From a bacterium (GTDB lineage: Bacteria; Hydrothermota; UBA3073; JACQXS01; JAQTXJ01): DNA of 64,000 nt. The notes under the pieces were generated by a model, which saw only the letters and a list, made by a program, of their open reading frames with translations, was not told the origin of the DNA and made no database searches. The stretch covers positions 282,775 through 346,774 of the forward strand of contig JAQUPX010000001.1 in NCBI GenBank assembly GCA_028716385.1. The letters are read 5' to 3'. The position numbers and the translations under genes are program-made. Below, one piece after another: positions 560 through 61,200 of the stretch (position 1 is the first letter of the stretch; every line of letters starts with the position of its first letter).

Positions 560-1642
560 ATGAAAGAACTTGCTCTCTTATTTTTTATTACTTTAAATTC
601 TACAAACAACGGCATTGCTAAGACTTATCAAAACTCTGAAGCAAATGGGAAATATATTGCAGGTATTCATTTTCCCGAAAACCGGTATAACAAAAAGTTC
701 TCGCTTCCTTCATTGGATACCGTTTACTCTTTCCCAACGCCGGGAACATGGCCGGGAGGCTTAGCCTGGGATGGAACACATTTTTGGCTTTCGGATAATG
801 ATGCACTCTATATTTATAAACTTACTGCTACCGGGGTTGTAGATACATTCTTCCCTGAACCTGCCTCAGCCGGAGGGCTTACCTGGGACGGTTCGCACAT
901 TTGGTACGTAAGCGAACAAGACGCCAAATTATTTAAACTTGACCCGTCAACCGGAGCAGTAATGTCAACTTTCAACCTGCCTGCCTTTGGTCAGTCTGAC
1001 CCTAACTCCTGGGGAATTGCATGGGATGGCACTTATTTCTGGCACAGCGAGTATAACGGAGCCTCCTCAATAATATATAAACTTGACTCCGGAAATGGAA
1101 ATGTCATATCTTCATTTACAGTGCCATATGGTTTTATATTGGGTATAGTCTGGTTAAATAATTATCTTTATGGAGTTGATTGTCATTCTTTTAAAATTTA
1201 CAAAATAGATACTAACAGTGGTTCTGTAGTAGATAGCGGCGATTGGCCACTCCCTTATGCTTTGGGCCTGGCACGGAAAGATTCTTGCTGGTGGGGCGTC
1301 AGTAGCAAAATCCCGAGCGGAAATCAACGAGTATATGAGTTATGCGGTGAACTTTCGGGAGTTGAAGAAAAAAACAATGAACACTTATCAATAATGAAAA
1401 ATTGTCCTAATCCATTAAATAAAAAAACAATCATAAGTTATTGCCTCGTTTCCGGAACAGCCGTATCGTTAAAAATTTATGATATAAACGGGAAAGTAGT
1501 CAGAACGCTAATAAACGAAGAAAAACAAGCCGGAAATTATAATGTTAACTTAGATGCTCAAAACTTACCTGCAGGTATCTACCTCGCCAGACTTAATGCC
1601 GGCGAATATAAACAAACAATAAAAATGATTGTTGTGAAATAA
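560..1642 (+). CDS. secreted repeat (WDG[TS][HY][FI]W) propeller-like protein with T9SS C-terminal tail
   Basis: 360-aa ORF; four spaced G(L/I)(A/T)WDGxxxW repeats; C-terminal LKIYDINGKVVRTL...GIYLARL...IVVK tail. Confidence 0.55.
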   Translation: MKELALLFFITLNSTNNGIAKTYQNSEANGKYIAGIHFPENRYNKKFSLPSLDTVYSFPTPGTWPGGLAWDGTHFWLSDNDALYIYKLTATGVVDTFFPEPASAGGLTWDGSHIWYVSEQDAKLFKLDPSTGAVMSTFNLPAFGQSDPNSWGIAWDGTYFWHSEYNGASSIIYKLDSGNGNVISSFTVPYGFILGIVWLNNYLYGVDCHSFKIYKIDTNSGSVVDSGDWPLPYALGLARKDSCWWGVSSKIPSGNQRVYELCGELSGVEEKNNEHLSIMKNCPNPLNKKTIISYCLVSGTAVSLKIYDINGKVVRTLINEEKQAGNYNVNLDAQNLPAGIYLARLNAGEYKQTIKMIVVK

Positions 1643-1770
1643 TTGGCAGACCATTTTATCTGCCAAAGTCATAAAAATCTAAAATGACACTTGACAATAT
1701 GAAGCATAGATTGCATATATAAGGTATAGGATAAAAAGAGTTTTAGCATAAACAAAAAATAGGGGGATAG

Positions 1771-3811: not shown

Positions 3812-4426
3812 ATGAGAAAACTTTTTATACTTTTAATTTTTAGCGCGCAAATCGCATCCGCGGATTCTTCCTCTTTTTCTGTTGATTTCCCAATAACTAA
3901 TATCCTAATAACCAATAATGTGTGTGATTCTTTTTCTCCCATCGGACTTAAGCCAAGCAATCTCATACTGACAGATTTATATGGATGTAAGAGTAATTAT
4001 TTGTTCACGGCAGTAAACGATTCTCAAAAATCTGTTACCTCTGCCGAAGATAGAACGTGGGTCGTAACCGAGCCTTTCGGCGGATTTTTAGGTGGAGTTT
4101 TGGGTGGACTTGCAGGCGCTATAATTGTTGCCTTGGCAGTGCCGTATAGCTTAGACAGTAGTGATCCCACAGTAAGGAACGGATTTCTTTTTGGGTATGC
4201 GGCCGGATGTGGGCTTGGTATCTGGTCAGCAGGGAAATGGATAGAAAGAGAAAAAGGAAATTTGATATGGACAATTTTTGGTAGTATGGCAGGAGAATTC
4301 CTTGCTTATGCAAAACTTACTTATAACAATAATCATGATGATTACAGTACCGGTATTTATTTAGTCATACCTGTATTACCTATAATATCAGGAGTAATTG
4401 CTTATCGTATGAGTTTTAAAAAATGA
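3812..4426 (+). CDS. glycine-zipper membrane protein, tandem paralog 1 of 5
   Basis: 204 aa; N-terminal signal-like segment, IGLKPSxL motif, WVVTEPxGG, Gly-rich hydrophobic segments, GIWxxGKxIEREKG, ends YRMSFKK; stop overlaps next start (ATGA). Confidence 0.55.
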   Translation: MRKLFILLIFSAQIASADSSSFSVDFPITNILITNNVCDSFSPIGLKPSNLILTDLYGCKSNYLFTAVNDSQKSVTSAEDRTWVVTEPFGGFLGGVLGGLAGAIIVALAVPYSLDSSDPTVRNGFLFGYAAGCGLGIWSAGKWIEREKGNLIWTIFGSMAGEFLAYAKLTYNNNHDDYSTGIYLVIPVLPIISGVIAYRMSFKK

Positions 4427-17108: not shown

Positions 17109-18596
17109 TTACTTCACAACTACTATTTTCGATGTGCAGTTTTGTCCGCAAGCGGACAGTCTTGCGAGGTATACGCCGGAGGTAAACCCTGTCGGCGTCC
17201 ATTCTAATGTATATTCACCGGGAACCTTATTTGTGTTTAAAAGAGTTTTAACCAATTCGCCTGCAGTGTTATATATCCTTAAACATACATCGGAATTTTT
17301 TGGTATGGAGTATCTGAAAAGTAATTTGTGGTTAGAGAGTTGTGCATATAATCTAGGCGTTTCCCGAGAATAAACTTTTTCCTGAACACCGGCTATACAT
17401 CCTCCATCCAGGACTTTCAAAATTCCTGTTCCTCCGATTACCACTTCCAATTGCCCGTCCCCGTCTACGTCTCCGATTGAAGGGTCGCTGTCTCCGGCAG
17501 AACTATTGCCAAATTCCCATAGAAGAGTTCCGTCATTATTGAGTCCGCGTATTATTGTATCGTTAGAGGCAAATACTATTTCGGGTTTATCGTCACTGTC
17601 CAAATCGCCAATCGCAGGGCATGACCATATGTGACTTCCCGTTGCATAACTCCAGAGCACTGAGCCATCTTCACCGTTGAGAGCGTAAAAGTTGAAATCA
17701 TCGGAGCCAAATACTATTTCAGGTTTAGTGTCGTTATCCAAATCTGCAATCGCAGGGGAAGAGCGTACGGAACCTCCTGTCGTCGTGTAGCTCCAAAGTA
17801 AAGAACCGTCTTCTCCGTTGAGAGCGTAGAAATCGAATGAGCCGACAACTATCTCGAGTTTAGTATCGTTATCCAAATCTGCAATCGCCGGGGAAGCGCT
17901 AACTCCTATTGGATAACTCCAGATAAGCGAACCATCTTCACCATTAAGAGCATATAATTTATTGTCGCCAAGAACTACCTCAAGTTTAGTATCGTTATCC
18001 AAATCCGCAATTGCAGGCGAAGACCATATGTAACTTCCCGTTGCATAACTCCAGAGTACTGAGCCGTCTTCACCGTTGAAAGCGTAGAACGTATAATCCA
18101 GGGAGCCAACAGCTATTTCAGGTTTACTATCGTTATCCAAATCCGCAATCGCGGGGGAAGACATTACCCGATTTCCTGTCTTATAACTCCAGAGCAGGGA
18201 GCCGTCTTCAGTATTGAGGGCATAAAGTTGGCTGTCATAGGAGCAGACAACCACCTCGAGTTTAGTGTCCCCGTCTAAATCCCCAAGTGCAGGGCAAGAG
18301 CATATTTTACCCGACGTTGTATAGCTCCATATTACTGAACCGTTTTCTCCATTGAAATTATATATTTTATTGTCTATGTCATTACCGGAAATTATTTCAG
18401 GGATGTTATCATTATTTATGTCTACAATTGCAAATTTAGCGAATCCCTCGTTAGGGGTTTGCCATTTGATTCTCATAGAATCGGAAGTTAAGCATCCTTT
18501 GAGTTCAGGTTGAAAACCAGTATTTTGCAGGTCATGATGGAATTTCAGCCATTCTCCGGGCAAGGTCAAAAGGCAAATAAGAAATATATTCAACAT
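17109..18596 (-). CDS. propeller-repeat (PQQ-like / FG-GAP-like) protein with T9SS C-terminal tail; inverted paralog of 29316-30824
   Basis: 495 aa; repeating IADLDNDTKxEVVxGSxDxxLYALNGEDGSxLWSYxTG units; C-terminal sorting tail; N- and C-terminal regions about 80-90 percent identical at nucleotide level to 29316-30824 on the other strand. Confidence 0.65.
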   Translation of the reverse strand: MLNIFLICLLTLPGEWLKFHHDLQNTGFQPELKGCLTSDSMRIKWQTPNEGFAKFAIVDINNDNIPEIISGNDIDNKIYNFNGENGSVIWSYTTSGKICSCPALGDLDGDTKLEVVVCSYDSQLYALNTEDGSLLWSYKTGNRVMSSPAIADLDNDSKPEIAVGSLDYTFYAFNGEDGSVLWSYATGSYIWSSPAIADLDNDTKLEVVLGDNKLYALNGEDGSLIWSYPIGVSASPAIADLDNDTKLEIVVGSFDFYALNGEDGSLLWSYTTTGGSVRSSPAIADLDNDTKPEIVFGSDDFNFYALNGEDGSVLWSYATGSHIWSCPAIGDLDSDDKPEIVFASNDTIIRGLNNDGTLLWEFGNSSAGDSDPSIGDVDGDGQLEVVIGGTGILKVLDGGCIAGVQEKVYSRETPRLYAQLSNHKLLFRYSIPKNSDVCLRIYNTAGELVKTLLNTNKVPGEYTLEWTPTGFTSGVYLARLSACGQNCTSKIVVVK

Positions 18597-29315: not shown

Positions 29316-30824
29316 ATGTTAAACATTTTTCTTATCTGTCTTCTCAACCTCCCCGGCGAATGGCTCAAATTCCATCACGACCTCCAAAACACAGGTTTCC
29401 AATCTGAACTCAAAGGATGCTTAACTCCTGACTCCGTCAGAATCAAATGGGAAACTCCTAATTTGGGATTCGCCAAATTCACAATTGTAGATATAAATAA
29501 TGACGGCATTCCTGAAATAATTGCCGGTAATTACTATGACTATTCAATATATAATTTCAAAGGGGAAGACGGTTCGGTAATATGGAGTTACGAAACAGGA
29601 AGCAAAGTGTCCTCTACTCCTGCGATTGCAGATTTGGATAACGATACTAAACTTGAGATACTTGTTGGCTCAAGGGATTATAATTTATACGCTCTCAAGG
29701 GTGAAAATGGGACACTGCTCTGGAATTATACAACAGGAGGTTCTGTGTATTCTTCGCCAACGATTGCGGATTTAAATAACGACAGTAAACTTGAGGTAGT
29801 TGTTGGCTCTGGCGATTTTACACTATATACGCTCAACGGAGAAGATGGTTCTCTACTCTGGAGTTATACAACAGGAGGGAGTATAATATCTTCACCTGCA
29901 ATTGCGGATTTGGATAACAACGCTAAACTTGAGGTAGTTGTTGGGTCCGATGATTCTACGCTGTATGGCCTAAATGGAGAAAATGGCTCACTACTCTGGA
30001 GCTATAAAACAGGAAATTGCATAGAGTCTTCGCCGGCAATTGGGGATTTGGATAACGACACTAAACCTGAAGTAGTTTTTGGCTCTGTGGATTCGACGTT
30101 GTATGCTCTCAATGGCGAAGATGGCTTACTACTCTGGAGTTATACAACAGGAGGTTCCGTATACTCTTCGCCGGCAATTGGGGATTTGAATAACGACAGT
30201 AAACTTGAGGTAGTTGTTGGATCATTTGACCATAAACTGTATGCTCTCAATGGAGAAGATGGCTCATTGCTCTGGAGTTATGGAACAGAGAATTGGATAT
30301 ACTCCTCGCCAGCAATTGGGGATTTGGATGGTGATGGGAAACTTGAGATAGTATTTGCCTCTTGTGATACAATAACAACAGTATACGGACTCAACGACGA
30401 TGGCACTCTTCTATGGACATTTAACATTTATTCTGCTGGAGACAGCGACCCTTCAATCGGAGATGTAGACGGTGACGGACAACTAGAAGTAGTAATCGGG
30501 GGAACGGGTTATTTAAAAGTTCTGGATGGAGGATGCATAGCCGGCGTTCAGGAAAAAATTGATTCTAAAGAAACCCCTAAACTCCATACACAAATCTTCG
30601 GGCGCAAATTACTTTTCAGATACTCCATACCAAAGAAATCCGACGTCTGTTTACGAATATATAACACTGCAGGCGAATTAGTTAAGACTCTTTTAAACAC
30701 AAATAAAGCCCCCGGTGAATATACATTAGAATGGACGCCGACAGGTTTTGCCTCAGGCATCTACCTTGCAAGACTATCCGCTTGCGGAGCAAACTGCACG
30801 TCAAAAATAGTAGTCGTGAAGTAG
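29316..30824 (+). CDS. propeller-repeat (PQQ-like / FG-GAP-like) protein with T9SS C-terminal tail; inverted paralog of 17109-18596
   Basis: 502 aa; same repeat architecture and near-identical first ~60 and last ~100 residues as 17109-18596. Confidence 0.65.
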   Translation: MLNIFLICLLNLPGEWLKFHHDLQNTGFQSELKGCLTPDSVRIKWETPNLGFAKFTIVDINNDGIPEIIAGNYYDYSIYNFKGEDGSVIWSYETGSKVSSTPAIADLDNDTKLEILVGSRDYNLYALKGENGTLLWNYTTGGSVYSSPTIADLNNDSKLEVVVGSGDFTLYTLNGEDGSLLWSYTTGGSIISSPAIADLDNNAKLEVVVGSDDSTLYGLNGENGSLLWSYKTGNCIESSPAIGDLDNDTKPEVVFGSVDSTLYALNGEDGLLLWSYTTGGSVYSSPAIGDLNNDSKLEVVVGSFDHKLYALNGEDGSLLWSYGTENWIYSSPAIGDLDGDGKLEIVFASCDTITTVYGLNDDGTLLWTFNIYSAGDSDPSIGDVDGDGQLEVVIGGTGYLKVLDGGCIAGVQEKIDSKETPKLHTQIFGRKLLFRYSIPKKSDVCLRIYNTAGELVKTLLNTNKAPGEYTLEWTPTGFASGIYLARLSACGANCTSKIVVVK

Positions 30825-31697: not shown

Positions 31698-33131
31698 TCA
31701 CTTTATTAGTACCATTTTCTTTGTCTCTTTAAAATTATTAGTTGTCACCCTCACAAAATATACCCCACTCTTTTTTATATTCGGCGTAAACACATAATCC
31801 CCTTTGCTTAATGCTCCATTGTAAATAACCTCTTTCGTTCTCCCGCACAAATCGTAAATTTTCAATTCCGCATTTATACTCTTTGGCACGCTCAAATAAA
31901 TCTTATCTTTTATTATTTCCATTTTTGATATTTGATTTTTGATTTTTGATTTCTCCTCTATCCCTACCTTAACATATTTTAATGCAAGCGAATAGTTCCA
32001 TCCTGCCGAAATTGCAGTAACGCCTGTCAGGAGGCTTGTCTGGACAGGCTGATTACGCTGGGTGCCGGTAGAATCTCCAAGCTGTCCATAACCGTTCTGC
32101 CCCCAAGCCCATACGGTACTGTCGGATTTTATTAATGCGAGTGAATGTTCCCCTCCTGCTGAGATTGCAACGGCATTGGTCAGATTAAGTGTCTGCAAGG
32201 GCACGGAATGAGGATTATAATCACTACTTCCGATACCAAGCTCCCCATAGCCGTTATATCCCCAAGCCCATACGGTTCCGTCAGGCTTTAATGCGAGTGA
32301 ATGCGCGCCCCCTGCTGAGATTGCAATAACACCGGTCAGGAGTTTTACCTTGACAGGCTGATTATTCTGGGTGGTGGTAGAATCTCCAAGCTGTCCGTAG
32401 TAGTTATATCCCCAAGCCCAGACTGTACTGTCAGACTTTAACGCAAGTGAATGGTGACCTCCCGCTGAAATTGCAACGACATTCGTCAAAAGATTTGTCT
32501 GGACAGGTACGAAATGAGTATTGTAATCGCTACTTCCGATACCAAGCTGTCCGGAGCCGTTATATCCCCATGCCCAGACGGTTCCGTCAGATTTTAACGC
32601 AAGTGAATGCGAACCTCCCGCAGAAATTGCAATAACATTCGTAAGAAGTTTTGTTTGCACAGGATAACGGCGATAGGCAGTAACAGTAGAATCTCCAAGC
32701 ACTCCGGAACCATTACTTCCCCAAGCCCAGACAATGCTGTCAGATTTTAAAGCAAGTGAATGCGAACCTCCCGCAGAAATTGCAACAACATTAGTCAAGA
32801 ACTTTGTCCGGACAGGATTATATCTATAATAAAAAGTAGTAGAATCTCCAAGCTGTCCGTAGGCATTATATCCCCACGCCCAGACAGTGCTGTCATAGTT
32901 TATGGCAAGCGAAAAGTCATATCCTCCTCCGCCTTTTCCTGCACAGATTGCAAGAACATTAGTCAAGATTTTTGTCCGGACGGGTTGATTCCGTTGCCAA
33001 GTATTAGTAGAATCTCCAAGCTGTCCCCAGTCATTACTTCCCCATGCCCATACATTTTCATCGGCTTTTGCGACACCTGCGCTTCCTGCTATCAACAGGC
33101 TTACGACCCACATAAAACTTTGTTTCTTCAT
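31698..33131 (-). CDS. RCC1-repeat propeller protein with T9SS C-terminal tail
   Basis: 477 aa; seven-plus repeats of VWAWGxNxYGQLGDST...GGxHSLALKSDxTV; C-terminal sorting tail. Confidence 0.7.
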   Translation of the reverse strand: MKKQSFMWVVSLLIAGSAGVAKADENVWAWGSNDWGQLGDSTNTWQRNQPVRTKILTNVLAICAGKGGGGYDFSLAINYDSTVWAWGYNAYGQLGDSTTFYYRYNPVRTKFLTNVVAISAGGSHSLALKSDSIVWAWGSNGSGVLGDSTVTAYRRYPVQTKLLTNVIAISAGGSHSLALKSDGTVWAWGYNGSGQLGIGSSDYNTHFVPVQTNLLTNVVAISAGGHHSLALKSDSTVWAWGYNYYGQLGDSTTTQNNQPVKVKLLTGVIAISAGGAHSLALKPDGTVWAWGYNGYGELGIGSSDYNPHSVPLQTLNLTNAVAISAGGEHSLALIKSDSTVWAWGQNGYGQLGDSTGTQRNQPVQTSLLTGVTAISAGWNYSLALKYVKVGIEEKSKIKNQISKMEIIKDKIYLSVPKSINAELKIYDLCGRTKEVIYNGALSKGDYVFTPNIKKSGVYFVRVTTNNFKETKKMVLIK

Positions 33132-38804: not shown

Positions 38805-40268
38805 CTATCTCATTAGAATCAATTTCTTTGTTTCTCTGTAATTATCCGTTTTTAACTTCACAAAATAAATCCCTGTTGTTAAACCTTTGGCGTCAAAATT
38901 AACACTATAACTTCCCGCTTGTTTTTCTTCATTGACAAGTGTTTTAACACAACTGCCCGTTATGTCATAAAGGGCTAACGAAACTTTACTTTTCCCATTG
39001 TTGAGCGAAGCGAAATCCGCCGTAGGCGCGAGTATTTGATATTTAATAATCCCTTTATTTACTATAGGATTTGGAAAACAATCGGTCAATCCATATGTTT
39101 TTGGAGTCCCGGTTTCTTCTTGAATGCTGCCAAAGCCAGGTCCTATCGCATAAAAAAGACTATCGCTTCCTTGTACATATATTGTTCCATCTGAACCTAT
39201 CGTAGGAGAAGAATATATTGGCGCTCCTGTTAAATAAGACCATTTAAGCGAACCATCAGAATTTATTGCGTAAAGGTTACTATCACTAGACCCAATATAT
39301 ATAGTTCCATTAAAATCTATTGCCGGAGAACTTCCTATTCTCTCACCTGTTAGAAAAGACCATTTAACCGAGCCATCAGGATTCATTGCATAAAGTTTCC
39401 TATCGTACGATCCAACATATATAGTCTCATCATAACCTATTGCAGGGCAAGAAGTAGTTATCATACCTCCTGTTTGATATGACCATTTTAGCGTCCCACT
39501 ATCAGGGTTTAAAGCATAAAGCTTGTGATTATATGCTCCTATATATACGGTTCTATCAGAACCTATCGCCGGTGCAGGATTGGGCTGACTTCCCGTTTGA
39601 TATGACCATTTTTCAACCCCGTCGTAATTTATCGCGTAAACCTTACCGGCATCACACCCCAAATATATAACCCCGTTAAGAGGGTCTATTGCCGGAGATG
39701 ACGCTATTCGGAAGTCTGTTTGATATGACCATTTAAGCGAACCATCAGGGTTTATCGCATAAAGTTTAAAATTAGATGACCCAAAATATATAATCCCGGC
39801 AGAATCTATTGCCGGGGAGCTGTTTTGATACCATCCGCTTCCTACTGTTACAAAAGACCATTTAAGCGAGCCGTCAGGATTTATTGCATAAAGTTTACTA
39901 TCCCAGGATAATACATATATAGTACTATCATAGCCTATTGCCGGCGAAGATATTACATAGTCCCCCGTTTTATATGACCATTTGATAGAGCCCATAGAAT
40001 CTATTGCATAAAGATTGCTATCGCTTGACCCGACATATAAAGTCCCATCAAAACCTATTGTTGGGGAAGAAAAACTCAAATAATTTCCTGTTACACAGCT
40101 CCATTTAAGTTGAGGGGTTGCAGGTCCGATATATGGGCTGCGTCCTGTATGTTGTAAATCATGGTGAAACATTGGCCAGGGAGTATTTGCTAACTGAGCA
40201 TCCAGGTTTCTAAACCCAATCAACCCAACAAATAAAATGAAAAAAACTTTTATACTTTTTATTGTCAT
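38805..40268 (-). CDS. PQQ-like beta-propeller repeat protein with T9SS C-terminal tail
   Basis: 487 aa; eight-plus repeats of YAINPDGSLKWSYxTGxxxxSSPAI; C-terminal sorting tail. Confidence 0.65.
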   Translation of the reverse strand: MTIKSIKVFFILFVGLIGFRNLDAQLANTPWPMFHHDLQHTGRSPYIGPATPQLKWSCVTGNYLSFSSPTIGFDGTLYVGSSDSNLYAIDSMGSIKWSYKTGDYVISSPAIGYDSTIYVLSWDSKLYAINPDGSLKWSFVTVGSGWYQNSSPAIDSAGIIYFGSSNFKLYAINPDGSLKWSYQTDFRIASSPAIDPLNGVIYLGCDAGKVYAINYDGVEKWSYQTGSQPNPAPAIGSDRTVYIGAYNHKLYALNPDSGTLKWSYQTGGMITTSCPAIGYDETIYVGSYDRKLYAMNPDGSVKWSFLTGERIGSSPAIDFNGTIYIGSSDSNLYAINSDGSLKWSYLTGAPIYSSPTIGSDGTIYVQGSDSLFYAIGPGFGSIQEETGTPKTYGLTDCFPNPIVNKGIIKYQILAPTADFASLNNGKSKVSLALYDITGSCVKTLVNEEKQAGSYSVNFDAKGLTTGIYFVKLKTDNYRETKKLILMR

Positions 40269-40275
40269 CTTTTCC

Positions 40276-41622
40276 TTATTTCATCACGATTAACTTTTTT
40301 GTTAGTTTGTAATTGTCTGCACTTAGTTTCACAAAATAAATTCCTGTTTTTAATTCTTTTGCATTTAGAGTAACACTATAACTTCCCGCTTCTTTTTCCC
40401 CGTCAGCTAATGTCTTAACACAACTTCCTGAAATGTCGTAGAGCCTTAATGAGATATTGCTTTTATCGGGTACGCAGTAACTAACAGTAGTTGATTTAAT
40501 AAACGGGTTTTTCAGTATTTCTAATTTTGCATTTCGGAATGTGAATTGCGGATTTTGGGATTCTTCCATCCCCATAGTTGTATAAACCCATTTTAAGTCT
40601 TTGTTTGTGAAATCATAATAAGCAACATCCATTGCGTACCCATCTTCACCACAACTCGTGTATCCTCCAACATCTCCAAAATCACACGCCCCTCCGCCCG
40701 ATGAAGTGTTTCCCCATTTAAGAACTCCGCCAGTTTTATCATAGTAAGTGATCATCCCATCGTTACAGCAAGCAAACATCCCTACATCTCCAACACTATC
40801 CAGAATAGAAGTTATCCAACTGCTCCCATTAAAAACAGCTTTTTTCAGGTCACCGTTTGTTACATCGTAATAAGCAATTACATAATTATTAGTTACTTTA
40901 CTGAGAGAACAGTACTGTCCTACATTTCCTGCTGTGTCCGCTTTTCCAATTATCCACTGGGTTCCGGTCCGGTATGCATATTTCAGGTCGCCGTTTGTTG
41001 CATCATAATAAGCTATTCCATATCTATCCTCTTTGTAGAGAGAACTGTATTGTCCAACGTCTCCCGCGGTATCCACTTTCTCAATTATCCATTGTGTTCC
41101 ATTCCAACTTGCATATTTTAAGTCGCCGTTTGTCGCATCATAATAGCTTATGTGTGGATAATTGAGAGTATCTAATTTCAACGAGGTGTATAATCCAACA
41201 TTTCCGGTAGTGTCCACTTTTTCAATATCCCATTGTGTCCCATTCCAATGGACATACTTTAAGTCTCCATTTGTAGAGTCATAATAACTTATGTGCGGAG
41301 AATACAGACTGTCTTTAATAACGGTTTGTATTCCAATAGAAGTCCACATTCCCACATCACCTATTGTATCTACATTTTGGATTGAAAACATTTCAAATCC
41401 TTCTGCACACTTTAGATTACCATTTGTAGCATCATAATAGGATATAAAAACAGGGAAAAGATCTGCTCTGGATATACTTTGAGGCGCTACCATTGAAATA
41501 TATTTTCCAACGTCCCCGGTTGTATCTACCCTGAAAATAGCTCCTCCTGTTGATTTTTCACTGAGAATTGCCAACATTACTACTGTCCAGAATATACTTA
41601 GCATAAATCTACTTCTTCTCAT
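40276..41622 (-). CDS. tandem ~45-aa repeat (ISYYDATNGDLKYA...) protein with T9SS C-terminal tail
   Basis: 448 aa; five-plus copies of DTxGDVGxYxSLxxxxxxxPHISYYDATNGDLKYAxWNGTQW; C-terminal sorting tail. Confidence 0.55.
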   Translation of the reverse strand: MRRSRFMLSIFWTVVMLAILSEKSTGGAIFRVDTTGDVGKYISMVAPQSISRADLFPVFISYYDATNGNLKCAEGFEMFSIQNVDTIGDVGMWTSIGIQTVIKDSLYSPHISYYDSTNGDLKYVHWNGTQWDIEKVDTTGNVGLYTSLKLDTLNYPHISYYDATNGDLKYASWNGTQWIIEKVDTAGDVGQYSSLYKEDRYGIAYYDATNGDLKYAYRTGTQWIIGKADTAGNVGQYCSLSKVTNNYVIAYYDVTNGDLKKAVFNGSSWITSILDSVGDVGMFACCNDGMITYYDKTGGVLKWGNTSSGGGACDFGDVGGYTSCGEDGYAMDVAYYDFTNKDLKWVYTTMGMEESQNPQFTFRNAKLEILKNPFIKSTTVSYCVPDKSNISLRLYDISGSCVKTLADGEKEAGSYSVTLNAKELKTGIYFVKLSADNYKLTKKLIVMK

Positions 41623-41871: not shown

Positions 41872-43299
41872 TTATTTTAACACTTTCCAATATCCGCCTT
41901 TATCCGGTCCAATTCGCTTGATAATTTTCTCTTTAACCAGTTTTCGTAATCGAGACTGTATTGTTTCTTCTGTCTCGTTCAGTTGTATAGATAATTCTTT
42001 CCTTGATAACTGCGGGTTTTCTTTTATCGTATTTATTATTATCCGGTATTTATCCGGTATTTTTCTGGGACTTTTCTGGGACTTTTCTGGGACTTTTGCA
42101 GTGATCTTTACAGTGCCTTTCCCGGCGTCCTTGTTATATAATTTTTCTGAAAACTTTTTTTTCGACTTATAAAAAATTACTACAAAACCTGTTTTTATAC
42201 ACTGAAACTCAACTTTTATTTTATATTTCTCGCATTCTTCGTAGATTCTTTTTAATCCGCTTCCCCATTTTTCAATGTCACTTGATTTATACAAAGTCTC
42301 CGCAATTAATGGATTCCTTAAGATAGAATGCTCTTTGCCCTTGATAAAGTCTTCAGGGGTTGCTTCTTCCGGGAACTGTCCGGGGTTATATATTTCTATC
42401 CTGTCCTTAAAAATAGCAATTTCATTGCCTTTAGGATTAGCATAATCCCTGTGACATAATGAATTGACAATAGCCTCTGTAATGGCTCTGACAGAGATTT
42501 CAGGGATTTCTTCTCTCCTGCTTCCTTCAAGATTAGCGCGCCAGTTCATATGCTCTTTTATGTAAGTTTCTGATTGTGCTTTCAAATTGAAAATATTTCC
42601 CTTAAATTTCTTGATATCAAGAAATGTGAGTTTATCCGTACCGGCAAATACAGCCGCCTGTACTTCCATTAAATTGTCATCACAAAATAAAACCTCTGCG
42701 GATTTGAGTAGTTTGTTTCCTTTGCTAAGATTTAATTTATGTAATACAGTTTTTATGTTTGAAAACTTGAAGTTAATTCTTTTAGCTTCGTTTGCCCTTG
42801 CTATATAATTTTTTACTGTATCTACATTTATATCTTTAAGAGATTTCTCTGATACTCCGTTTTCCCAAAAGATTTTGTTTTTCTTAAGTATTAAATTCTC
42901 CAATTCTCGAGCACTCAATTGCCTGTTTTCGTCGCCAACTCTCATATATGCTCTACCATAAGCAAAGTAAGGAATGTCCTGCCCGGAAAATTCAACCTCA
43001 ATATACATCTTTTTATTTGCCTTATTTGCAGAAACTTTAGGGAAAATTCTAGGCTCAATATGTTCTGAAATAGCTCTGGAAATTTCTCTTAAAGTATTTT
43101 TACCTATCGCCTGGCCTACAAAAGTGCTATCATCTTTTATGCCAAAATATATTTTACCTTTACTATGTTTATTAAGAATGGCAGATATAGAAATAATGGC
43201 TTCTTTTAATTCTGAAGTTGATGCCTTAAGCTCAACCTTTTCTGATTCTATATATTTCATTCTATTAGTACTACTATATAGTTTCTGTAATGTCGTCAA
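41872..43299 (-). CDS. putative DNA-binding regulator (AlbA_2/Schlafen-like domain + HATPase_c_4-like + C-terminal winged helix)
   Basis: 475 aa; N-terminal YIESEKVELKAS...GKIYFGIKDD block, central ITEAIVNSLCHRDYANPKGNEIAIFKDRIEIYNPG block, C-terminal IINTIKENPQLSRKELSIQLNETEETIQSRLRKLVKEKIIKRIG helix-turn-helix; contains an 11-nt x3 tandem repeat at 42061-42093. Confidence 0.65.
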   Translation of the reverse strand: MTTLQKLYSSTNRMKYIESEKVELKASTSELKEAIISISAILNKHSKGKIYFGIKDDSTFVGQAIGKNTLREISRAISEHIEPRIFPKVSANKANKKMYIEVEFSGQDIPYFAYGRAYMRVGDENRQLSARELENLILKKNKIFWENGVSEKSLKDINVDTVKNYIARANEAKRINFKFSNIKTVLHKLNLSKGNKLLKSAEVLFCDDNLMEVQAAVFAGTDKLTFLDIKKFKGNIFNLKAQSETYIKEHMNWRANLEGSRREEIPEISVRAITEAIVNSLCHRDYANPKGNEIAIFKDRIEIYNPGQFPEEATPEDFIKGKEHSILRNPLIAETLYKSSDIEKWGSGLKRIYEECEKYKIKVEFQCIKTGFVVIFYKSKKKFSEKLYNKDAGKGTVKITAKVPEKSQKSPRKIPDKYRIIINTIKENPQLSRKELSIQLNETEETIQSRLRKLVKEKIIKRIGPDKGGYWKVLK

Positions 43300-43369: not shown

Positions 43370-44197
43370 TCATTTCATTAATATTAGTTTCTTTGTCTCT
43401 TTTATATTCCCCGCACTTAACTTCACAAAATATACCCCGCTCTTTTTTATGTTCGGCGTAAATGTATAATCCCCTTTACTTAATGTGCCACTGTAAATAA
43501 CCTCTTTCGTTCTCCCGCATAAATCGTAAATTTTCAATTCCGCATTTATACTCTTTGGCGCGCTCAAATAAATCTTTCCTTTTATAATTTTCAAGTCAAC
43601 AGCTTGAAGCGAGGGCTTCAAGCTACCCTGTTCTTCTATCCCTACGACAGGAGTGCCTGTTATGGAAACATCGTCAATCCAAAAAGCGACAGAGTCAGTA
43701 TAACTTGAAGTACCGGGAGATTGTATATCTGCTCCGAATATAATTCCGGTTATAGTATCCTTATCAGTATAAATTCCTTGCCATTGTGTCCATACCAAGT
43801 TTTCCCCCATACCATACAGATAATCCCCCCTAGTCCATACTGTATCATTCTTTTTATTTATAAGGAGAATGATAGATATTTTGTTAACAGACATCGCAGG
43901 CGCATCGCACGAATATTGATACTGAATTTTGCATGTGCAAGATATTACGGGTTTTATCGTTTGGGACATAGTTATGCTACTGAACTGGCATGAAGGTTTA
44001 TATCCATAAGCATATACCTCGCAACTTGCCGGAGAGGAGTAATATTTTGTATAGCAAGGAGTTGCCCTCCCGCCACCGTGTGCTATTGTGGGCGACCAGC
44101 TCGTTACTCCCGAATTAAATCCACCGTTAGTTATCATCTCACTCGCAAACATAGATAACGGCACAATTAACATCAAACCTATCAATACCTTTTTCAT
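43370..44197 (-). CDS. secreted hypothetical protein with T9SS C-terminal tail
   Basis: 275 aa; signal-like N-terminus; C-terminal sorting tail. Confidence 0.5.
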   Translation of the reverse strand: MKKVLIGLMLIVPLSMFASEMITNGGFNSGVTSWSPTIAHGGGRATPCYTKYYSSPASCEVYAYGYKPSCQFSSITMSQTIKPVISCTCKIQYQYSCDAPAMSVNKISIILLINKKNDTVWTRGDYLYGMGENLVWTQWQGIYTDKDTITGIIFGADIQSPGTSSYTDSVAFWIDDVSITGTPVVGIEEQGSLKPSLQAVDLKIIKGKIYLSAPKSINAELKIYDLCGRTKEVIYSGTLSKGDYTFTPNIKKSGVYFVKLSAGNIKETKKLILMK

Positions 44198-44208
44198 AGT
44201 TTTTTCTC

Positions 44209-45618
44209 CTACTTAATCAAGATTAATTTCTTTGTTTCTGTAAAATTATTAGTTTTTAATTGCACAAAATACACCCCATTCTTTTTTATCTTCGGCGTAA
44301 ACGTATAATCCCCTTTACTCAATATGCCATTATAGACAGTGCTTTGAAGTCTTCCACATAAATCATAAATCGTTATTAGTGTATTAGTATAATAGTTATT
44401 AGGAACAGAAAGACAAATCTTATCTTTTATAGTTTTTATATTTACTGACCACTCACCACTCACCACTGGCAACTGTTCTTCTTCTACGCCGACTTCTTTC
44501 CCCAATTTAATCAGATAGACTCCACAACCTGCCCCACTTCCTGCAATAATAAATCCGCTGTCAGAAGTTTGTTGAATTGATCTTCCCGCATCATAGCCGG
44601 TTCCGCCGATAGTTTTTGTCCAGAGAGTGTCGCCCGAACTATTTATCTTGATTAGATAGATATCTCCACCACCTGCCCCAAAAGAGGTTGTCATTCCTGA
44701 AATAATAAATCCGCTATCAGAAGTTTGTTGAAATGCCCAGCCCTCATCATACTCAGTTCCACCATAAGTTTTTGTCCAAATCGTATTACCTGAAGAATTT
44801 GTACGTATAAAATAAATATCTCCCTTACCTGCTCCTAAAAGTTCTGAATAACCTAAAACAATAAAGCCACCCATTCCGCCCGAAACTGATTGAACGGAAG
44901 TGCCGCCATCATATCCGCTTACACCGAAAGTTTTAGTCCAGATAACATCTCCCGAACTAGTTGTCCTTATTAGATAAACATCTCCCTCGCCCGGTCCATA
45001 ATATGCTTTTGTCATTCCTGAAATGATAAACCCTCCGTCTTGAGTCTGTTGAACGGAAAAACCTACATCATCGTAAATTCCGCCATAAGTTTTTGTCCAG
45101 AGAGTATTACCCGAAGAATCTGTCTTGATAAAATAAAAATTCTGATAATCCGGTGCGCCTGTCCCGAAAGAGTATGTCCCGCCTACGATAACAAATCCTC
45201 CGTCTTGAGTCTGTTGAACGCATTCTCCATAATCAGAGTCAGTCCCGCCGTAACTTCTTGACCATAAGGTATCCCCTAAAGAATCCGTTTTAATCAAACA
45301 AACATCTTTCCCGGAATACGTATTGCCTGCAATAATAAACCCGCAGTCAGAAGTCTGTTGGACCGAAAAGCCCCCATTGTTGCTAATTTTTCCGAAAGTT
45401 TTTGTCCACAGGGTATCCCCCGAAGAGTTTGTTCTGATGAGATAAATATTATTAGAATCTGTACGGCTTACAATAACAAATCCCCCGTCTTGAGTCTGTT
45501 TAACAAAATAGGCAGATGCACTTTTCCCGCCATAAGTCCTTGTCCATAAAGTATCCGGTGCAGATGCGAACAAGTTTGTTCCCGTTATGATAATTAATAT
45601 AATCAAATATCTTTTCAT
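44209..45618 (-). CDS. beta-propeller-type repeat (SBBP-like) protein with T9SS C-terminal tail
   Basis: 469 aa; eight repeats of GDTLWTKTYGGxxxDxGxSVQQTxDGGFIIxGxT...DxYLIKT; C-terminal sorting tail; same family as the fragment at 1-552. Confidence 0.6.
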   Translation of the reverse strand: MKRYLIILIIITGTNLFASAPDTLWTRTYGGKSASAYFVKQTQDGGFVIVSRTDSNNIYLIRTNSSGDTLWTKTFGKISNNGGFSVQQTSDCGFIIAGNTYSGKDVCLIKTDSLGDTLWSRSYGGTDSDYGECVQQTQDGGFVIVGGTYSFGTGAPDYQNFYFIKTDSSGNTLWTKTYGGIYDDVGFSVQQTQDGGFIISGMTKAYYGPGEGDVYLIRTTSSGDVIWTKTFGVSGYDGGTSVQSVSGGMGGFIVLGYSELLGAGKGDIYFIRTNSSGNTIWTKTYGGTEYDEGWAFQQTSDSGFIISGMTTSFGAGGGDIYLIKINSSGDTLWTKTIGGTGYDAGRSIQQTSDSGFIIAGSGAGCGVYLIKLGKEVGVEEEQLPVVSGEWSVNIKTIKDKICLSVPNNYYTNTLITIYDLCGRLQSTVYNGILSKGDYTFTPKIKKNGVYFVQLKTNNFTETKKLILIK

Positions 45619-45724
45619 ATTGCCCCCCTATTTCAGTGGGTAGTTGGGAGCACGTGCTCCCAACGCTACCCTGTGTTTTCATTCTGTCATTGTCATCCCG
45701 CACTTGATGCGGGATCCATTGTTT

Positions 45725-46900
45725 TCATTTTATTAGTACCATTTTCTTCGTTTCTTTAAAATTATTAGTTGTCAGCCTCACAAAATACACCCCGCTCTTT
45801 TTTATATTGGGCGTAAATGTATAATCCCCTTTGCTTAGTAGACCTTGATAAACAGTGCTTTGAAGTCTTCCACATAAATCATAAATTTTCAATTCCGTAT
45901 TTATACTCTTTGGCGCGCTCAAATAAATCTTGCCCTTTATTATCTGTAAATCCGCATTCCCCAATCCGAAATCCAAAATCAAAGGTTCTTCCACTCCCGA
46001 TTTTGAGTTAATGAATTTTAATATCCACTTTCCCGTAGTGTCGGGAACATTATATAAATATAACTCGGAAGAATCCGGTGTCAAACTTAGCCCTGACACA
46101 AACCCTATTCCACTAAATTCCGGCATCGCTTCAGGTGTAGAAAAAGTGTCTCCTATCGAACCTCTTTTTGCGTAGTAAATAATACCGGCTCTAAAATAAA
46201 TTTCCAGTTCATTATTTGTCAGGAAACAAGAAAAGTTATTAGTGCCGGGAAAATTAATTTTAAGGGACTCTTTAGCTCCGAATAAAGAATCTCTATTGCT
46301 TCTGGAAGCCATATATAAATAAACCCCCTGAGAATCCTCCTGCGCAAAATAAAGATGTAATCCGTTTGGTGAAATCCATGGGTAAGCGTCTGCCGTATCG
46401 GTAATATTTATCTCGCTTAGCGGGCGCAAACTATCAAAAGGGTCCGTTAAAGAATTCCTTACGGCAATCCATAAATCATTGTTGTCCCAGTTATTGTCCC
46501 AGCTTTTCGTAAATACCATTATTTTCCCGTCTTCCGTAATTGTGGGCTGGCTATTCGAGAAAGTATCCACATCATTAATATTCCCGGGCAATTTTGTCAG
46601 ACTTAATGAATCAAACTCTTCCTTAAGATTATTGCGGGACATAACATACAATCTATAGTTACCCGTGCTATCCGCAATGCTTGCATAATATTTCAGTCCG
46701 TCTTTTGAGAGCTGTCCCGGTCCGGGTATAAGATTCTGCGGAACTATAAGCGTATCCTTTAAAATAAAAGTTGTATCCGAGAAAAAAGCCGTTTTTGTAT
46801 TATTCTTTGTCTGGAGAATCCGCAGATTCCCGTCCTGTTTCCTTTCAACGTTTCCCTGCGTTAACGCAAGAACAAACCCCATCAAAATCGCATAAATCAT
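45725..46900 (-). CDS. secreted protein with T9SS C-terminal tail (start set at MIYAIL...)
   Basis: Track ORF reaches 46939, but ATG at 46900 has AAGGAGAG 5 nt upstream and begins a signal-like MIYAILMGFVLALTQG; C-terminal sorting tail. Confidence 0.55.
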   Translation of the reverse strand: MIYAILMGFVLALTQGNVERKQDGNLRILQTKNNTKTAFFSDTTFILKDTLIVPQNLIPGPGQLSKDGLKYYASIADSTGNYRLYVMSRNNLKEEFDSLSLTKLPGNINDVDTFSNSQPTITEDGKIMVFTKSWDNNWDNNDLWIAVRNSLTDPFDSLRPLSEINITDTADAYPWISPNGLHLYFAQEDSQGVYLYMASRSNRDSLFGAKESLKINFPGTNNFSCFLTNNELEIYFRAGIIYYAKRGSIGDTFSTPEAMPEFSGIGFVSGLSLTPDSSELYLYNVPDTTGKWILKFINSKSGVEEPLILDFGLGNADLQIIKGKIYLSAPKSINTELKIYDLCGRLQSTVYQGLLSKGDYTFTPNIKKSGVYFVRLTTNNFKETKKMVLIK

Positions 46901-46984
46901 ATTCTCTCCTTTATTAACCGGTATGTCGGTTAATAACACCCATCAACAACAAAAGTCAAACATTTTAATTTGTACGATGCAAGC

Positions 46985-58200: not shown

Positions 58201-61200
58201 TCCCATCGTTACCGCCATTGCAATTCACGTATTTTACGGATTTGTATGTGATATAAGGCACAGGCGTACTCCATGGACCAATATTGCCAGACCTATCTAT
58301 TGCACAAACAGCATAATAATACATCCAGTCGACTGGCGCCCACTCATACCATGTCCTTTGAATAGGAGAAAATGTTGTAGCTAGATTAAACGTGTTTGGC
58401 GAGTTACTCGCACTCACAAAATAGCCGCCTAAATACGGTTCATGGTTAGATTCGCCAGTACCTGCCTCTGTAAATGGAGTAGCATCCCACACACAACGAA
58501 TAATGCCACCTCTGCCTCTAAAGAAAGACACGCCTGTTACCTGAGGAGGCTTCAAGATATTATTAGCACCGGTTTTTACAAAACTACCAGAAGGAGGCGG
58601 TGTTTCACTAAAAGAAGCAGGCTCTGAAGGTATTTCATTGGTGCCAACAGCATTAACCGCTCTAATTGCATAATAATAATCCCGTCCAACCTCACCGGTA
58701 AAGTCCTGGTAATTCAGCCCCGATGTGTTGCCAATATATTCATAATCTCCGTTACTGCTTACTTCCGAACGATAAATATAATATTCTAGGGCATAGGGAA
58801 CGGAGTTCCAACTTATAAAACCACTTTTTTCACCATGGTCTATGGGATAAGGAATACGTGACATTACGCTAGGTGCAATAGGCCTATTAGTAATAGGCAT
58901 TAATCCCCATGGTCTGGATTTGGCAGGCCCAATCCAGAATTGTGCTCGGTTTTCCCCCCCGTCATCCCATATGACTTTTACTTTGTACCAATATGGAATG
59001 TTAAAACAAACAGTATTATCCGTATACCCATAGAAATTAAAGCCGTTGTTTGTCGCATTAATTACACTGCCCGGAACCTCTTCAAACGGACCTTCCTCGC
59101 ATATACTGCGATATACAATATACTTAGTTATCTTATCGCTTACACCGCTTGTCCATGTTTCTTCTCCGGTAATCCAGCCTATGCTGACACCTCCTTCATA
59201 CCCTTCTGCCCAAATATTACCTAACAATGGAGCATAATACCTGCCAAGGAGTGTACCTTCTTCAACGTCTATGTTTGGACGTCTTCCTCCGGAATATGCC
59301 ATCCAGCCTTTTTCGCCGTTACTGCATACACAATAAAGATCATTATTCTTTAAGAAATATTCATGTTCCCATTCTGCATATGTTTTGTAAATTGCATCTG
59401 ATGTGCCAACGTAGAATGTTCCTTTCTCGCCGCCGCCGATACTTCCATATTTAACATCAGTGAACCATGTAGGATACATTATCCTGCCGTCAAAATTAAT
59501 ATCTACTGAAGTCGAATTCCACGCAGAGCCGGAACTTGCCCCAACCCCTCCCGTGGAAATTCCCATTATTGCGTCGTCTATAGCTCCGCCTGATCCTGTA
59601 ATTCCAAAATTTGCATGTCTGACATCTGCCCAGTTGACAGGAGCGTTTACCCAATCACTTTGTCCCCAACCCCAGGGATACGGATTATGTCCCGGTTCAT
59701 CATTCCTGAATGTATTAAAAGATGCAGCAGTTGTCTCATTCCATTTGGTCCAAGTTATGCCTCCATTCTTTGTCTGCGCCACACACCCTCTGTTGTCCGT
59801 TGTTATCCAAACGTTATTGCCAAGCAGATTGTTTTTGTCTACCCATATACCTCTTACACAGTCGGAAAAATGCTCTGGTGTGTTTGGGACGGGTTTTGTA
59901 GTTATATTTGCCTTCCAAGTTTGTCCAAAATCTACTGATTTTAATACATATCCTCCGGATGCTCCTATGTATCCAACCTGGTCATTTGCAAAATCCACAC
60001 AATAGAAAGCAAGGTTATTATTGTCTGCACCCACTATATTATCCGAATATAAAAAAGATTGCCCTCCTCCTGTTTTTTCAAGTTTTGCTATAATTCCTCG
60101 CACACCTGTATAAGTTATATCCGTGCTTACTTTTACATTTGTCCCTACGACATATGCATAGTCCTGCGTCTCGCATACTCCATAAAAATCCCAATCATTT
60201 CCACAACCCGTTACCGGGGTCCACTTTGAATATGCATCTTTTTTTAAGATTAATCCTTTATCTCCAACTGCATAGTTTTCACTAACTGCTCTTATAATTT
60301 GGTTATTGGAACCAAAATCCGGCTGTTGATTAAACCAACCGGAAGTAAATAAAGGGTCAAGTTTGTCGTCAAAAATAAATAAGCCGAAAGTATTACTATA
60401 AGAACCAGGTAGTGCTATTTCTAAATCACCATCGTTATCTATATCCCCTATTGCAAGCTCATGAATAGTAGTACCTATGGATAAAGTGTACGCGGTTTCC
60501 CATAAAAAACTTCCGTCATAATTAAGGCAAAGAAGACAATATTTTAACGCAACAAACGGATCTAGAGAAATAATTATTTCTGGGTTAGGAGTTAGGTCAT
60601 TTATATTGGCAACCGTTATAGAAAGACTTGTTGTAGCGATGCCGGTTAAAGCATAAGTCCATTTGAAGCTACCATCATGATATAAAGAATAAATTTGAGT
60701 CCCAGACGCAAAAATTATTTCATCATAAGGATTGTTGTCTATATTCGCTATTGCCGGGGAAGAAATAATTCTGTTTCCTGTTGTATAACTCCATCTGCAA
60801 GAACCATTTGTGTTTAACAGATATACTTTGTTATCATCCGAACCGGCTACTATTTCCAAAGTGGAGTTATTATTATCTATATCCGTTATTGCCGGGGAAA
60901 ACCTTACTTTGTCTCCTGTTGCATAATTCCATCTGCAAGAACCATTTGCATTTAATACGTATACATTGTTGTCATAAGAGCCGACCACTATTTCTAAAGC
61001 AGTGTTATTATTATCTATATCCGCTATTGCCGGGGAAGATTCTACGTCGCCTCCTGTTGCATAAGTCCATCTAAAAGAACCATTTGCATTTAATACATAT
61101 ACATTGTTATCATCAGAGCCGAATACTATTTCTAAAGGACCGTTATTATTATCTATATCCGTTATTGCCGGGGAAGATTCTATTTTATCTCCTGTTGGAG

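Follow-up and report, generated by a model that had tools for sequence, protein, structure and literature searches.

A perfect threefold 11-nt repeat in a gene for a predicted prokaryotic Schlafen protein turned out to be the core of a five-unit array between the gene's ATPase and winged helix-turn-helix (wHTH) regions, and relatives were found to carry alleles of such an array that differ by a single unit. We established here the anatomy of the array, the consequences of unit number for the reading frame, the conservation of the unit at the DNA level and the existence of one-unit alleles in the clonal backgrounds of relatives. From comparison of these sequences, we see an even chance that the array serves as a joint of the contingency (phase-variation-like) type, low in copy number, at which the wHTH is detached. 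Positions are those of the window, that is, the whole 64-kb stretch of DNA that was analysed (64,000 nucleotides).

Anatomy of the array and its gene

The features of the gene are as follows.

41872..43260, minus strand: Schlafen (AlbA_2) - HisK-like ATPase - wHTH coding sequence, 462 aa from ATG
42916..43248, minus strand: Schlafen/AlbA_2 domain, aa 18-128 of the 475-aa ORF (Pfam SLFN_AlbA_2, 2.8e-15)
43225-43248, minus strand: Ex4ExK motif, opening the Schlafen/AlbA_2 domain, E5..E10.K12 in 462-aa numbering
42172..42423, minus strand: HATPase_c_4, minimal histidine-kinase-like ATPase, aa 293-376 (Pfam, 3.2e-19)
42155..42162, minus strand: A8 homopolymer (T8 on the plus strand), encoding KKK, 58 nt 5' of the array
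42055..42168, minus strand: disordered inter-domain linker, aa 378-415 of the 475-aa ORF (365-402 in 462-aa numbering)
42061..42097, minus strand: perfect core of the array, unit AAAAGTCCCAG on the gene strand (TRF period 11, 3.4 copies, 100% matches, score 74)
42043..42064, minus strand: two degenerate units, AAAAATACCGG and ATAAATACCGG, in the same 11-nt register
41917..42039, minus strand: winged helix-turn-helix HTH_24, aa 421-461 (Pfam, 3.1e-05)

Read directly from the plus strand, TTTTCTGGGAC stands three times across 42061-42093 and is followed by TTTT; the gene-strand (minus) form of the unit is AAAAGTCCCAG. The original prediction had described this exact threefold repeat, and both the 100% matches reported by TRF and the identical array sequence in three independent assemblies bear it out (the NCBI MAG, with protein MDD5528683.1 on a 953-kb contig, and Logan SRR22315506 and SRR22315508). 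Because the three assemblies agree, the array is not an assembly artefact. A second, two-copy repeat had also been listed; TRF does find a period-11 repeat adjoining the core (42039..42062, 2.2 copies, 100%), but it is not a separate element, its copies being units 4 and 5 of one five-unit array that keeps a single 11-nt register, with matches of 11, 11, 11, 8 and 7 of 11. The longest lag-11 self-match run in the window is 26 nt, compared with a mean of 8.1 and a maximum of 12 in 300 first-order Markov, composition-matched simulations of the window, and the repeat at 42061-42097 far exceeds chance expectation. Three period-11 arrays were found by TRF in the whole 64-kb window.

The mechanically called ORF at 41872-43299, which had been taken as the coding sequence, is present on the minus strand and extends to a TTG at 43299 (475 aa), but the likely start is the ATG at 43260, which matches the 462-aa database entry, rather than that TTG. 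The window protein is identical to this entry (P0001, MDD5528683.1, 'ATP-binding protein'). Its Ex4ExK motif, the catalytic motif of Schlafen tRNases (Taboada et al., bioRxiv 10.1101/2025.07.24.666596), reads directly as E5-SEKV-E10-L-K12, and E5, E7, E10 and K12 are invariant in 60 homologs. Possession of PF04326 with the Ex4ExK motif, followed by a HisK-like ATPase and a C-terminal HTH, assigns the protein by sequence to the HisKinase-HTH class of prokaryotic Schlafens (pSlfn). An NCBIfam search of the window protein returned no match, and PADLOC gave partial matches only, to Schlafen-containing Argonaute-associated proteins.

Prokaryotic Schlafens are anti-phage effectors (Taboada et al., bioRxiv 10.1101/2025.07.24.666596), the commonest architectures being Slfn-HisKinase (34%) and Slfn-HisKinase-HTH (19%), with tRNase activity and anti-phage protection established for other pSlfn classes (same source); Schlafen-HisK-wHTH effectors have been linked to BREX loci (PMC12839542). 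The window protein resembles these effectors in its predicted Slfn/AlbA_2 domain with Ex4ExK, HisK-like ATPase and wHTH. A defence-island neighbourhood, which counts among the criteria for a pSlfn, is missing from the window gene: its neighbours are secreted repeat proteins with a common C-terminal tail, and no defence genes adjoin it, whereas array-bearing relatives sit in defence neighbourhoods. For example, hsdM adjoins the genes of relatives L003 and L015, that of L037 has UvrD, an OLD-type ATPase and an Eco57I-type methylase as neighbours, those of L010 and L050 adjoin an SNF2/PLD helicase gene, and that of L051 lies near Fic and an OLD-like ATPase.

The repeat had originally been placed within the winged-helix region, and this placement is contradicted by the Pfam bounds and by an AlphaFold2 model (m871705da25a0, built on 60 homologs, mean pLDDT 81.9). 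Because the core lies between HATPase_c_4 and HTH_24, in a segment modelled as disordered, the array is predicted to encode the inter-domain linker and not the winged helix. In the model, pLDDT falls below 50 at residues 369-398 and secondary structure is absent from 365-402, and the wHTH is predicted as helices 403-414, 420-427 and 431-443 plus a beta hairpin, at pLDDT 85-94. Translation of the perfect core passes through all three frames and gives K-VPEK-SQK-SPRK (aa 403-413 of the 475-aa ORF); in 462-aa numbering, the perfect units encode V390-K400. The peptide of the degenerate units, IPDKYRI, is homologous to KIPEKYQKII of relatives and continues into helix 403-414 of the model, the first of the wHTH, which begins within the part coded by these units.

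Reading frame and conservation of the unit

An 11-nt unit is not a whole number of codons, so that each unit is read in a different frame from the one before it, through all three frames. The unit lacks a stop codon in all six of its frames, and the three array frames are all open and give the same periodic peptide, so that translation can pass through the array in any frame. Simulated alleles with 1, 2, 4 or 5 units ran into a stop 4-9 codons past the array, before the wHTH, and those with 0, 3 or 6 units kept the wHTH in frame. As at phase-variable loci, then, the tract lies within an ORF and has a unit length not divisible by 3, and gain or loss of a unit switches the product between full-length and truncated forms; its 3.4 perfect copies are at the very minimum of the survey length of at least three units (PMC7383803). 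An in-frame repeat linker, by definition built of units that are a multiple of three, does not describe the 11-nt array of the window. The A8 homopolymer is a second, weaker potential slippage site, below the 9-nt threshold of a published survey, and the X XXY YYZ heptamer of programmed ribosomal frameshifting is absent from the 11-nt unit.

The AAAAGTCCCAG unit recurs at the matching linker position in homologs from bacteria and archaea that are only 31-59% identical, usually in three copies that are read in all three frames as KSPRKVPEKSQK. A relative from Hainich groundwater (P0005/L003; 59% protein identity) carries AAAAGTCCCAG 3.3 times, perfectly, at the equivalent spot. Nucleotide identity between this gene and the window gene is 62%, with third-position identity at 39%, and the longest exact run that they share is the array itself, at 35 nt, the runner-up being 16 nt. 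Two-unit scans placed the array in the linker of at least 11 lineages, in proteins only 31-35% identical overall; lineages with the unit at this level of identity are L007, L008/L010, L009, L017, L018/L020, L012, L034 and L037, with Woesearchaeota (L018/L020) and Nanoarchaeia (L034) among them. On these comparisons the array is inherited and conserved as DNA, synonymous positions included. Non-genic 22-mer sites (about 15 Streptomyces loci, Anaerolineae, Rikenellaceae and others) were also considered and were judged chance or unrelated occurrences, with no AlbA_2 or wHTH homolog nearby.

The usual layout in relatives is exactly three units, either AAAAGTCCCAG three times or AAAAGTCCCAG twice plus AAAAATACCAG, encoding K-S-P-R-K-V-P-E-K-(S/Y)-Q-K and then directly I-(I/L), the wHTH start; three units is the conserved in-frame state across relatives. 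The window array differs from this layout in having five units (+22 nt) and in being entered in a different phase, GCA AAA GTC as against CCG AAA AGT in relatives. A sister clade uses a different 11-nt unit, AAACTACCCAG, which encodes ETTQ-KLPR-NYPE-TTRK. Arrays generally have perfect cores and degenerate edges, and the peptide K-S-[PT]-R-K-[VI]-P-E-K-[SY]-Q-K is retained in many relatives despite divergence of their DNA units.

The array-plus-wHTH module is found joined to very different N-terminal parts. P0002 matches the window protein at 73% identity as far as the linker and then has a different C-terminal domain, and L046 matches L017 at 94.7% nucleotide identity only from the array onward, its N-terminus being small and unrelated. 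A HMMER search with the C-terminal 96 aa against 1.84 billion representatives returned mostly multi-wHTH proteins and few extra motif carriers, and a word-indexed search with a C-terminal query found mainly short wHTH-only ORFs and led to the split genes L047 and L048 described below.

Tandem repeats at this linker are common in the wider family. Nearly all of the best 120 homologs have a short tandem peptide repeat at the equivalent position (TTQK, TREK, SSEK, LVEG, GGQT, VTPQ, VPEN and others), encoded by DNA with 12- or 24-nt periods, some of them perfect; in L041 the 24-nt unit stands 4.1 times at 100%, and in L042 3.2 times at 98%. Copy number varies among close relatives, with SSEK twice in P0093 and P0104 and three times in P0085. 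These linkers resemble the window array in lying between the ATPase and the wHTH and in often being perfect DNA repeats, but their periods are multiples of 3, so that a change in copy number alters linker length only, whereas the 11-nt unit adds a frameshift. The linker of L045 carries AAGGTCCCTGAA (KVPE/RVLE), which from its sequence is a plausible 12-nt ancestor of the 11-nt unit, for which we infer the loss of one A.

Natural alleles that differ by one unit

A homolog search with the protein of L008, a Paludibacteraceae/Bacteroidales relative from anaerobic digesters, yielded eight 443-aa variants (P0308-P0315, 99-100% identity) together with two 389-aa proteins, P0316 and P0317, ending in ...KSPRKVPENFECS*. 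The DNA of these two (L049 and L050, from two samples) has zero substitutions relative to L008 over an aligned stretch of about 1.39 kb, comprising the gene and about 55 nt downstream, and the sole internal change is an 11-nt deletion, the other gap columns being at the trimmed 3' end. This deletion removes one unit and leaves the wHTH sequence intact and out of frame. Apart from the unit gap, the full overlaps show 0 mismatches in 2,488 nt between L008 and L050 and 2 in 4,356 nt between L008 and L049. As at phase-variable loci, repeat number therefore varies among otherwise identical array-bearing relatives.

The truncated alleles are not confined to one haplotype. Truncated P0316 has the haplotype of full-length P0308, and truncated P0317 (V72I, D161N) shares its haplotype with the full-length proteins P0312 and P0314. 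The sister clade has two truncated proteins, P0325 and P0326, on two haplotypes interleaved with full-length P0320 and P0321. Truncated alleles account for about 4 of the 22 assembled contigs in the L008 clade. The interleaving of full-length and truncated haplotypes could also come from recombination. In L052 (P0311), a perfect unit stands in place of a degenerate flanking one at unchanged length, which amounts to homogenisation. Haplotype interleaving and unit homogenisation are indirect hints only toward reversible switching, and direct restoration of the full-length state was not seen among the consensus assemblies compared.

Five further lineages are one unit off. L051 has two units in place of three; L048 has an otherwise intact 402-aa ORF ending in ...KSTRKVPENN*, with the wHTH ORF overlapping it in another frame; L047 has an out-of-frame wHTH as in L048, on a short contig; L016 is one unit short and has an internal deletion; and L014/L015 has one unit extra and a 10-nt deletion elsewhere. 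The last was considered as a clean +1-unit allele and rejected, as alignment to L008 showed the additional 10-nt deletion, which points to a decaying gene. Extra lesions are thus present in two of the six off-frame lineages (L015 and L016), which fits pseudogene decay and was counted against a switch. Taken across these lineages, the sequences show that the array changes by single units in relatives and is a natural frameshift hot spot.

The window gene itself is full-length. L001 and L002 do not differ from the window sequence, so that three consensus assemblies of this genome show the three-unit allele only, and variation within the organism was not seen among them. Nine predicted slipped alleles (A-unit counts of 0, 1, 2, 4, 5 and 6, and B-unit variants) were absent from a collection of 15 billion proteins by exact look-up, at the consensus level, and four other same-lineage comparisons of consensus assemblies showed no unit change. 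For comparison, a three-unit tetranucleotide tract switches at about 0.5-2e-6, and short tracts without strain variation are probably not phase-varying (PMC7383803).

These results bear on what the original prediction had said about variation. Its claim that gain or loss of one unit would frameshift away the DNA-binding domain agrees with the simulated alleles and with the natural alleles of relatives. The two- and four-unit strain variants that it looked to have counterparts in the one-unit-off alleles of relatives, but the three consensus assemblies of this genome hold none. It had named fixation at exactly three units across relatives as the opposite outcome; three is indeed the conserved in-frame state, but alleles one unit off exist.

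A contingency-type joint and its alternatives

In the contingency-type reading, the perfect 33 nt are the core of an inherited five-unit array encoding a flexible Lys/Pro/Ser/Glu-rich linker, whose units, read in three frames, give K-SPRK-VPEK-SQ, with only certain counts keeping the wHTH in frame. Replication slippage would add or remove single units, and such a change would convert Slfn-HisK-wHTH into a Slfn-HisK that ends a few codons past the array. The wHTH coding sequence would survive undamaged but out of frame, and a single additional slip could bring it back. The joint would in this way toggle the attachment of the DNA-binding domain on a defence-type effector. Slippage as the mechanism, reversibility, an elevated rate and adaptive value are what we infer. 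We favour this reading because truncated alleles are found repeatedly, on several haplotypes and with clean backgrounds, and form the assembled consensus of several samples, because the truncated Slfn-HisK product matches a common natural architecture, and because repeat purity is kept across deep divergence.

There is precedent for such a joint, since defence genes are a classic class of phase-variable loci (PMC7383803, PMC5909438). The phase-variable restriction-modification genes hsdS, hsdM, hsdR and mod (Atack et al., PMC7383803, PMC5909438) are like the window gene in having an intragenic non-triplet repeat that produces a frameshift in a gene of the defence class, and the hsdS tract lies between two domains, its truncated form keeping the N-terminal half, which mirrors a Slfn-HisK without the wHTH. 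At the same time, the published SSR surveys covered units of 1-9 nt, whereas the window unit is 11 nt long and has three perfect units only; unlike the restriction-modification tracts, the window array is translated in three frames into a conserved peptide, and its unit sequence is conserved across bacteria and archaea. Linker repeats, frameshifts and phase variation go unmentioned in the two pSlfn reports (bioRxiv 10.1101/2025.07.24.666596 and PMC12839542). Our literature searches yielded no relevant report on AlbA_2/HATPase_c_4 repeats or on non-triplet repeats that are read in three frames. S. Ohno (PNAS, 1984 and 1987) reportedly described oligomeric repeats with unit lengths not divisible by three. 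Such repeats are like the window array in having three open frames that give one periodic peptide, but the window array is short, and the frame at its exit matters.

A serious alternative, toward which we lean somewhat less than halfway, is that the array does no more than encode a flexible linker by repeats, possibly a basic N-terminal arm of the wHTH, and happens to be a mutational hot spot, and that the one-unit alleles are deleterious or neutral losses on the way to pseudogenes and not a selected or reversible switch. Identity of the unit DNA would then come from occasional slippage or gene conversion together with selection on the peptide, which could preserve the DNA because a change at any unit position is non-synonymous in two frames out of three. 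This would fit the presence of a tandem-repeat linker at this place in nearly every family member, usually with a non-frameshifting 12/24-nt period, the conservation of the linker peptide even where DNA units have diverged, the three-unit in-frame state kept by relatives, and the extra lesions of L015 and L016; the tract is also of minimum length, with a low expected rate, and the three consensus assemblies and the nine-allele look-up showed no variation in this genome. It fits less well with truncated alleles that are the assembled consensus in several samples and that stand, in both clades, on two or more haplotypes, otherwise unchanged up to 4.4 kb, a recurrence that exceeds expectation for a plainly deleterious lesion. 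Repeat purity, moreover, is kept across lineages with saturated synonymous sites, and the truncated product is a common natural architecture and not junk.

We consider it improbable that the DNA of the array acts in cis, for instance as phased sites bound by the wHTH of the protein itself or by another factor, with its linker coding being secondary. The exact 35-nt identity within a gene pair that is 62% identical and the 11-bp period, which is about one helical turn, would suit such an element, as would the arrays of this unit that stand in seemingly non-coding DNA of other, unrelated genomes (L013, L019, L021, L038 and a conserved Streptomyces element). However, the unit, even with one mismatch, is found nowhere else in the 64-kb window, the promoter region of the gene included; GTCCCAG-N4-GTCCCAG is likewise nowhere in the window outside the array, and a promoter scan stayed at background level. 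A wHTH homolog is absent from the fetched flanks of the non-genic arrays, many relatives keep the peptide while their DNA units degenerate, and the few unrelated arrays fall within a rough chance estimate, given that roughly a terabase was searched and that short tandem duplications are common. An origin of the repeat by a recent, chance or artefactual duplication confined to this one assembly is already refuted and has next to no probability left: the copies are perfect, as a very recent event predicts, yet three independent assemblies agree, at least 11 divergent lineages carry the unit at the homologous position, and the simulations never approach the observed run.

Whatever the use of the array, it is a clear case of a conserved non-triplet repeat in a coding region, of a kind that SSR surveys with units of up to 9 nt would miss, and the natural allele pairs, full-length and wHTH-less but otherwise identical, make the role of the wHTH directly testable. 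The contingency-type joint may further be a selected mutability device, its DNA kept pure across Bacteria and DPANN-type Archaea, that reversibly toggles Slfn-HisK-wHTH and Slfn-HisK and so tunes the regulation or autoimmunity of an abortive-infection RNase, and that may double as a recombination joint for the exchange of wHTH modules; this stronger proposal we hold as tentative and rather doubtful. If true, Schlafen defence genes would gain their first described SSR switch, one whose unusually long unit is translated in three frames. The recognition of prokaryotic Schlafens as anti-phage tRNases is recent, and a slippage-prone joint that detaches the wHTH would give heritable heterogeneity in a potentially toxic immune effector. 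This would be a parallel to phase-variable restriction-modification from another gene family, and from uncultured bacteria and archaea, in which few searches for such switches have been made.

Repeats in the linkers of homologous genes

The closest homolog of the window protein, P0002 (73% identity), carries different arrays in its linker (L006:1394-1512), where two 12-nt arrays occur in succession: AAAGACACTGAA, encoding KDTE, and then TTCAGTGAAAAC, encoding FSEN. Reverse-complementing the TTCAGTG core of the second gives the CACTGAA of the first, and the two arrays form an inverted pair within the coding linker. The C-terminal domain that follows is unlike the wHTH of the window protein. At L009, a locus with the same 11-nt unit as the window gene, three AlbA_2-type genes or fragments are arranged in tandem (608-2749, minus strand), one of which has four 11-nt units and then a 24-nt repeat, (AAAAGGTCACTGTAAAAGTCCCAG)x4, that combines the 11-nt unit with a 13-nt insert and encodes KVPEKVTV x4.

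The window gene's linker also contains a homopolymer 58 nt upstream of the array (42155-42162), which is T8 on the plus strand and so A8, coding for KKK, in the gene itself. A one-unit-off allele, L048, has runs of A8 and A6 at the corresponding position. The A8 run of the window gene could be a second slippage site or a site of transcriptional slippage.

The 11-nt unit in other sequence contexts

The same or a near-identical unit (xxxxGTCCCAG) occurs in five to seven or more copies in intergenic-looking arrays of unrelated genomes (Rikenellaceae, Anaerolineae and metagenome contigs).

Intergenic-looking 11-nt arrays
L013, about 581-635, minus strand
L038, about 683-759, plus strand
L021, about 4353-4407, plus strand
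L019, about 1350-1500, plus strand

Neither Schlafen nor wHTH homologs were found within the fetched flanks of these four arrays, which could reflect chance or an iteron-like element of no known kind. A shorter array, (AAAAGTCCCAG)x2-3, lies within a conserved non-coding element present in some 15 Streptomyces genomes with a GC fraction near 0.69, adjoined by a GC-rich hairpin (gccgccacc...ggtggcggc) and by a 'ttcagatgtc' motif common to these elements.

Streptomyces elements
One type: L022-L026, L029-L032, L035
Second type: L033, L036, L039
Listed separately: L028

At L026 an IS3-like transposase ORF adjoins the element. These Streptomyces elements are possibly mobile-element ends or binding-site arrays with no relation to the AlbA_2 gene.

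Gene neighborhoods

On both sides of the window gene lie minus-strand genes whose products are secreted, beta-propeller-like repeat proteins. These proteins share a C-terminal ...GxYFVKL...KKLILMK tail of the kind typically seen on type IX secretion cargo. Several of the window's secreted repeat protein genes contain long tandem repeats of 138 to 309 nt.

Secreted repeat protein genes in the window
38805-41622, minus strand, flanking gene
43370-46939, minus strand, flanking gene
17599-18162, 29612-30329, 32002-32913 and 60731-61197, associated TRF repeats

The AlbA_2-HATPase_c_4-wHTH homolog P0041 (L042:1501-2883) represents another setting, also seen at L043 and L044: the Schlafen homolog has a bAvd gene on one side and a reverse transcriptase gene (RVT_1) on the other, with an FGE-sulfatase-fold gene adjoining. 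Diversity-generating retroelements have this gene order, and here the Schlafen gene occupies the usual place of the template region.

wHTH modules, tandem and possibly shuffled

The top matches of the exhaustive C-terminal search (P0164, of 1182 aa, P0165, P0167, P0177 and P0202) consist of tandemly repeated wHTH domains, as many as 11 in one protein, that are related to the wHTH of the window gene. At L046:621-887, the array (two units, in frame) and a wHTH module are joined to a small Cys-containing N-terminus (MNKVIVLNCLHCKHEW...). Because the homology between L046 and L017 (94.7% at the nucleotide level), a locus with the same 11-nt unit, starts exactly at the array, this comparison suggests that the array is a recombination joint by which wHTH modules are shuffled.
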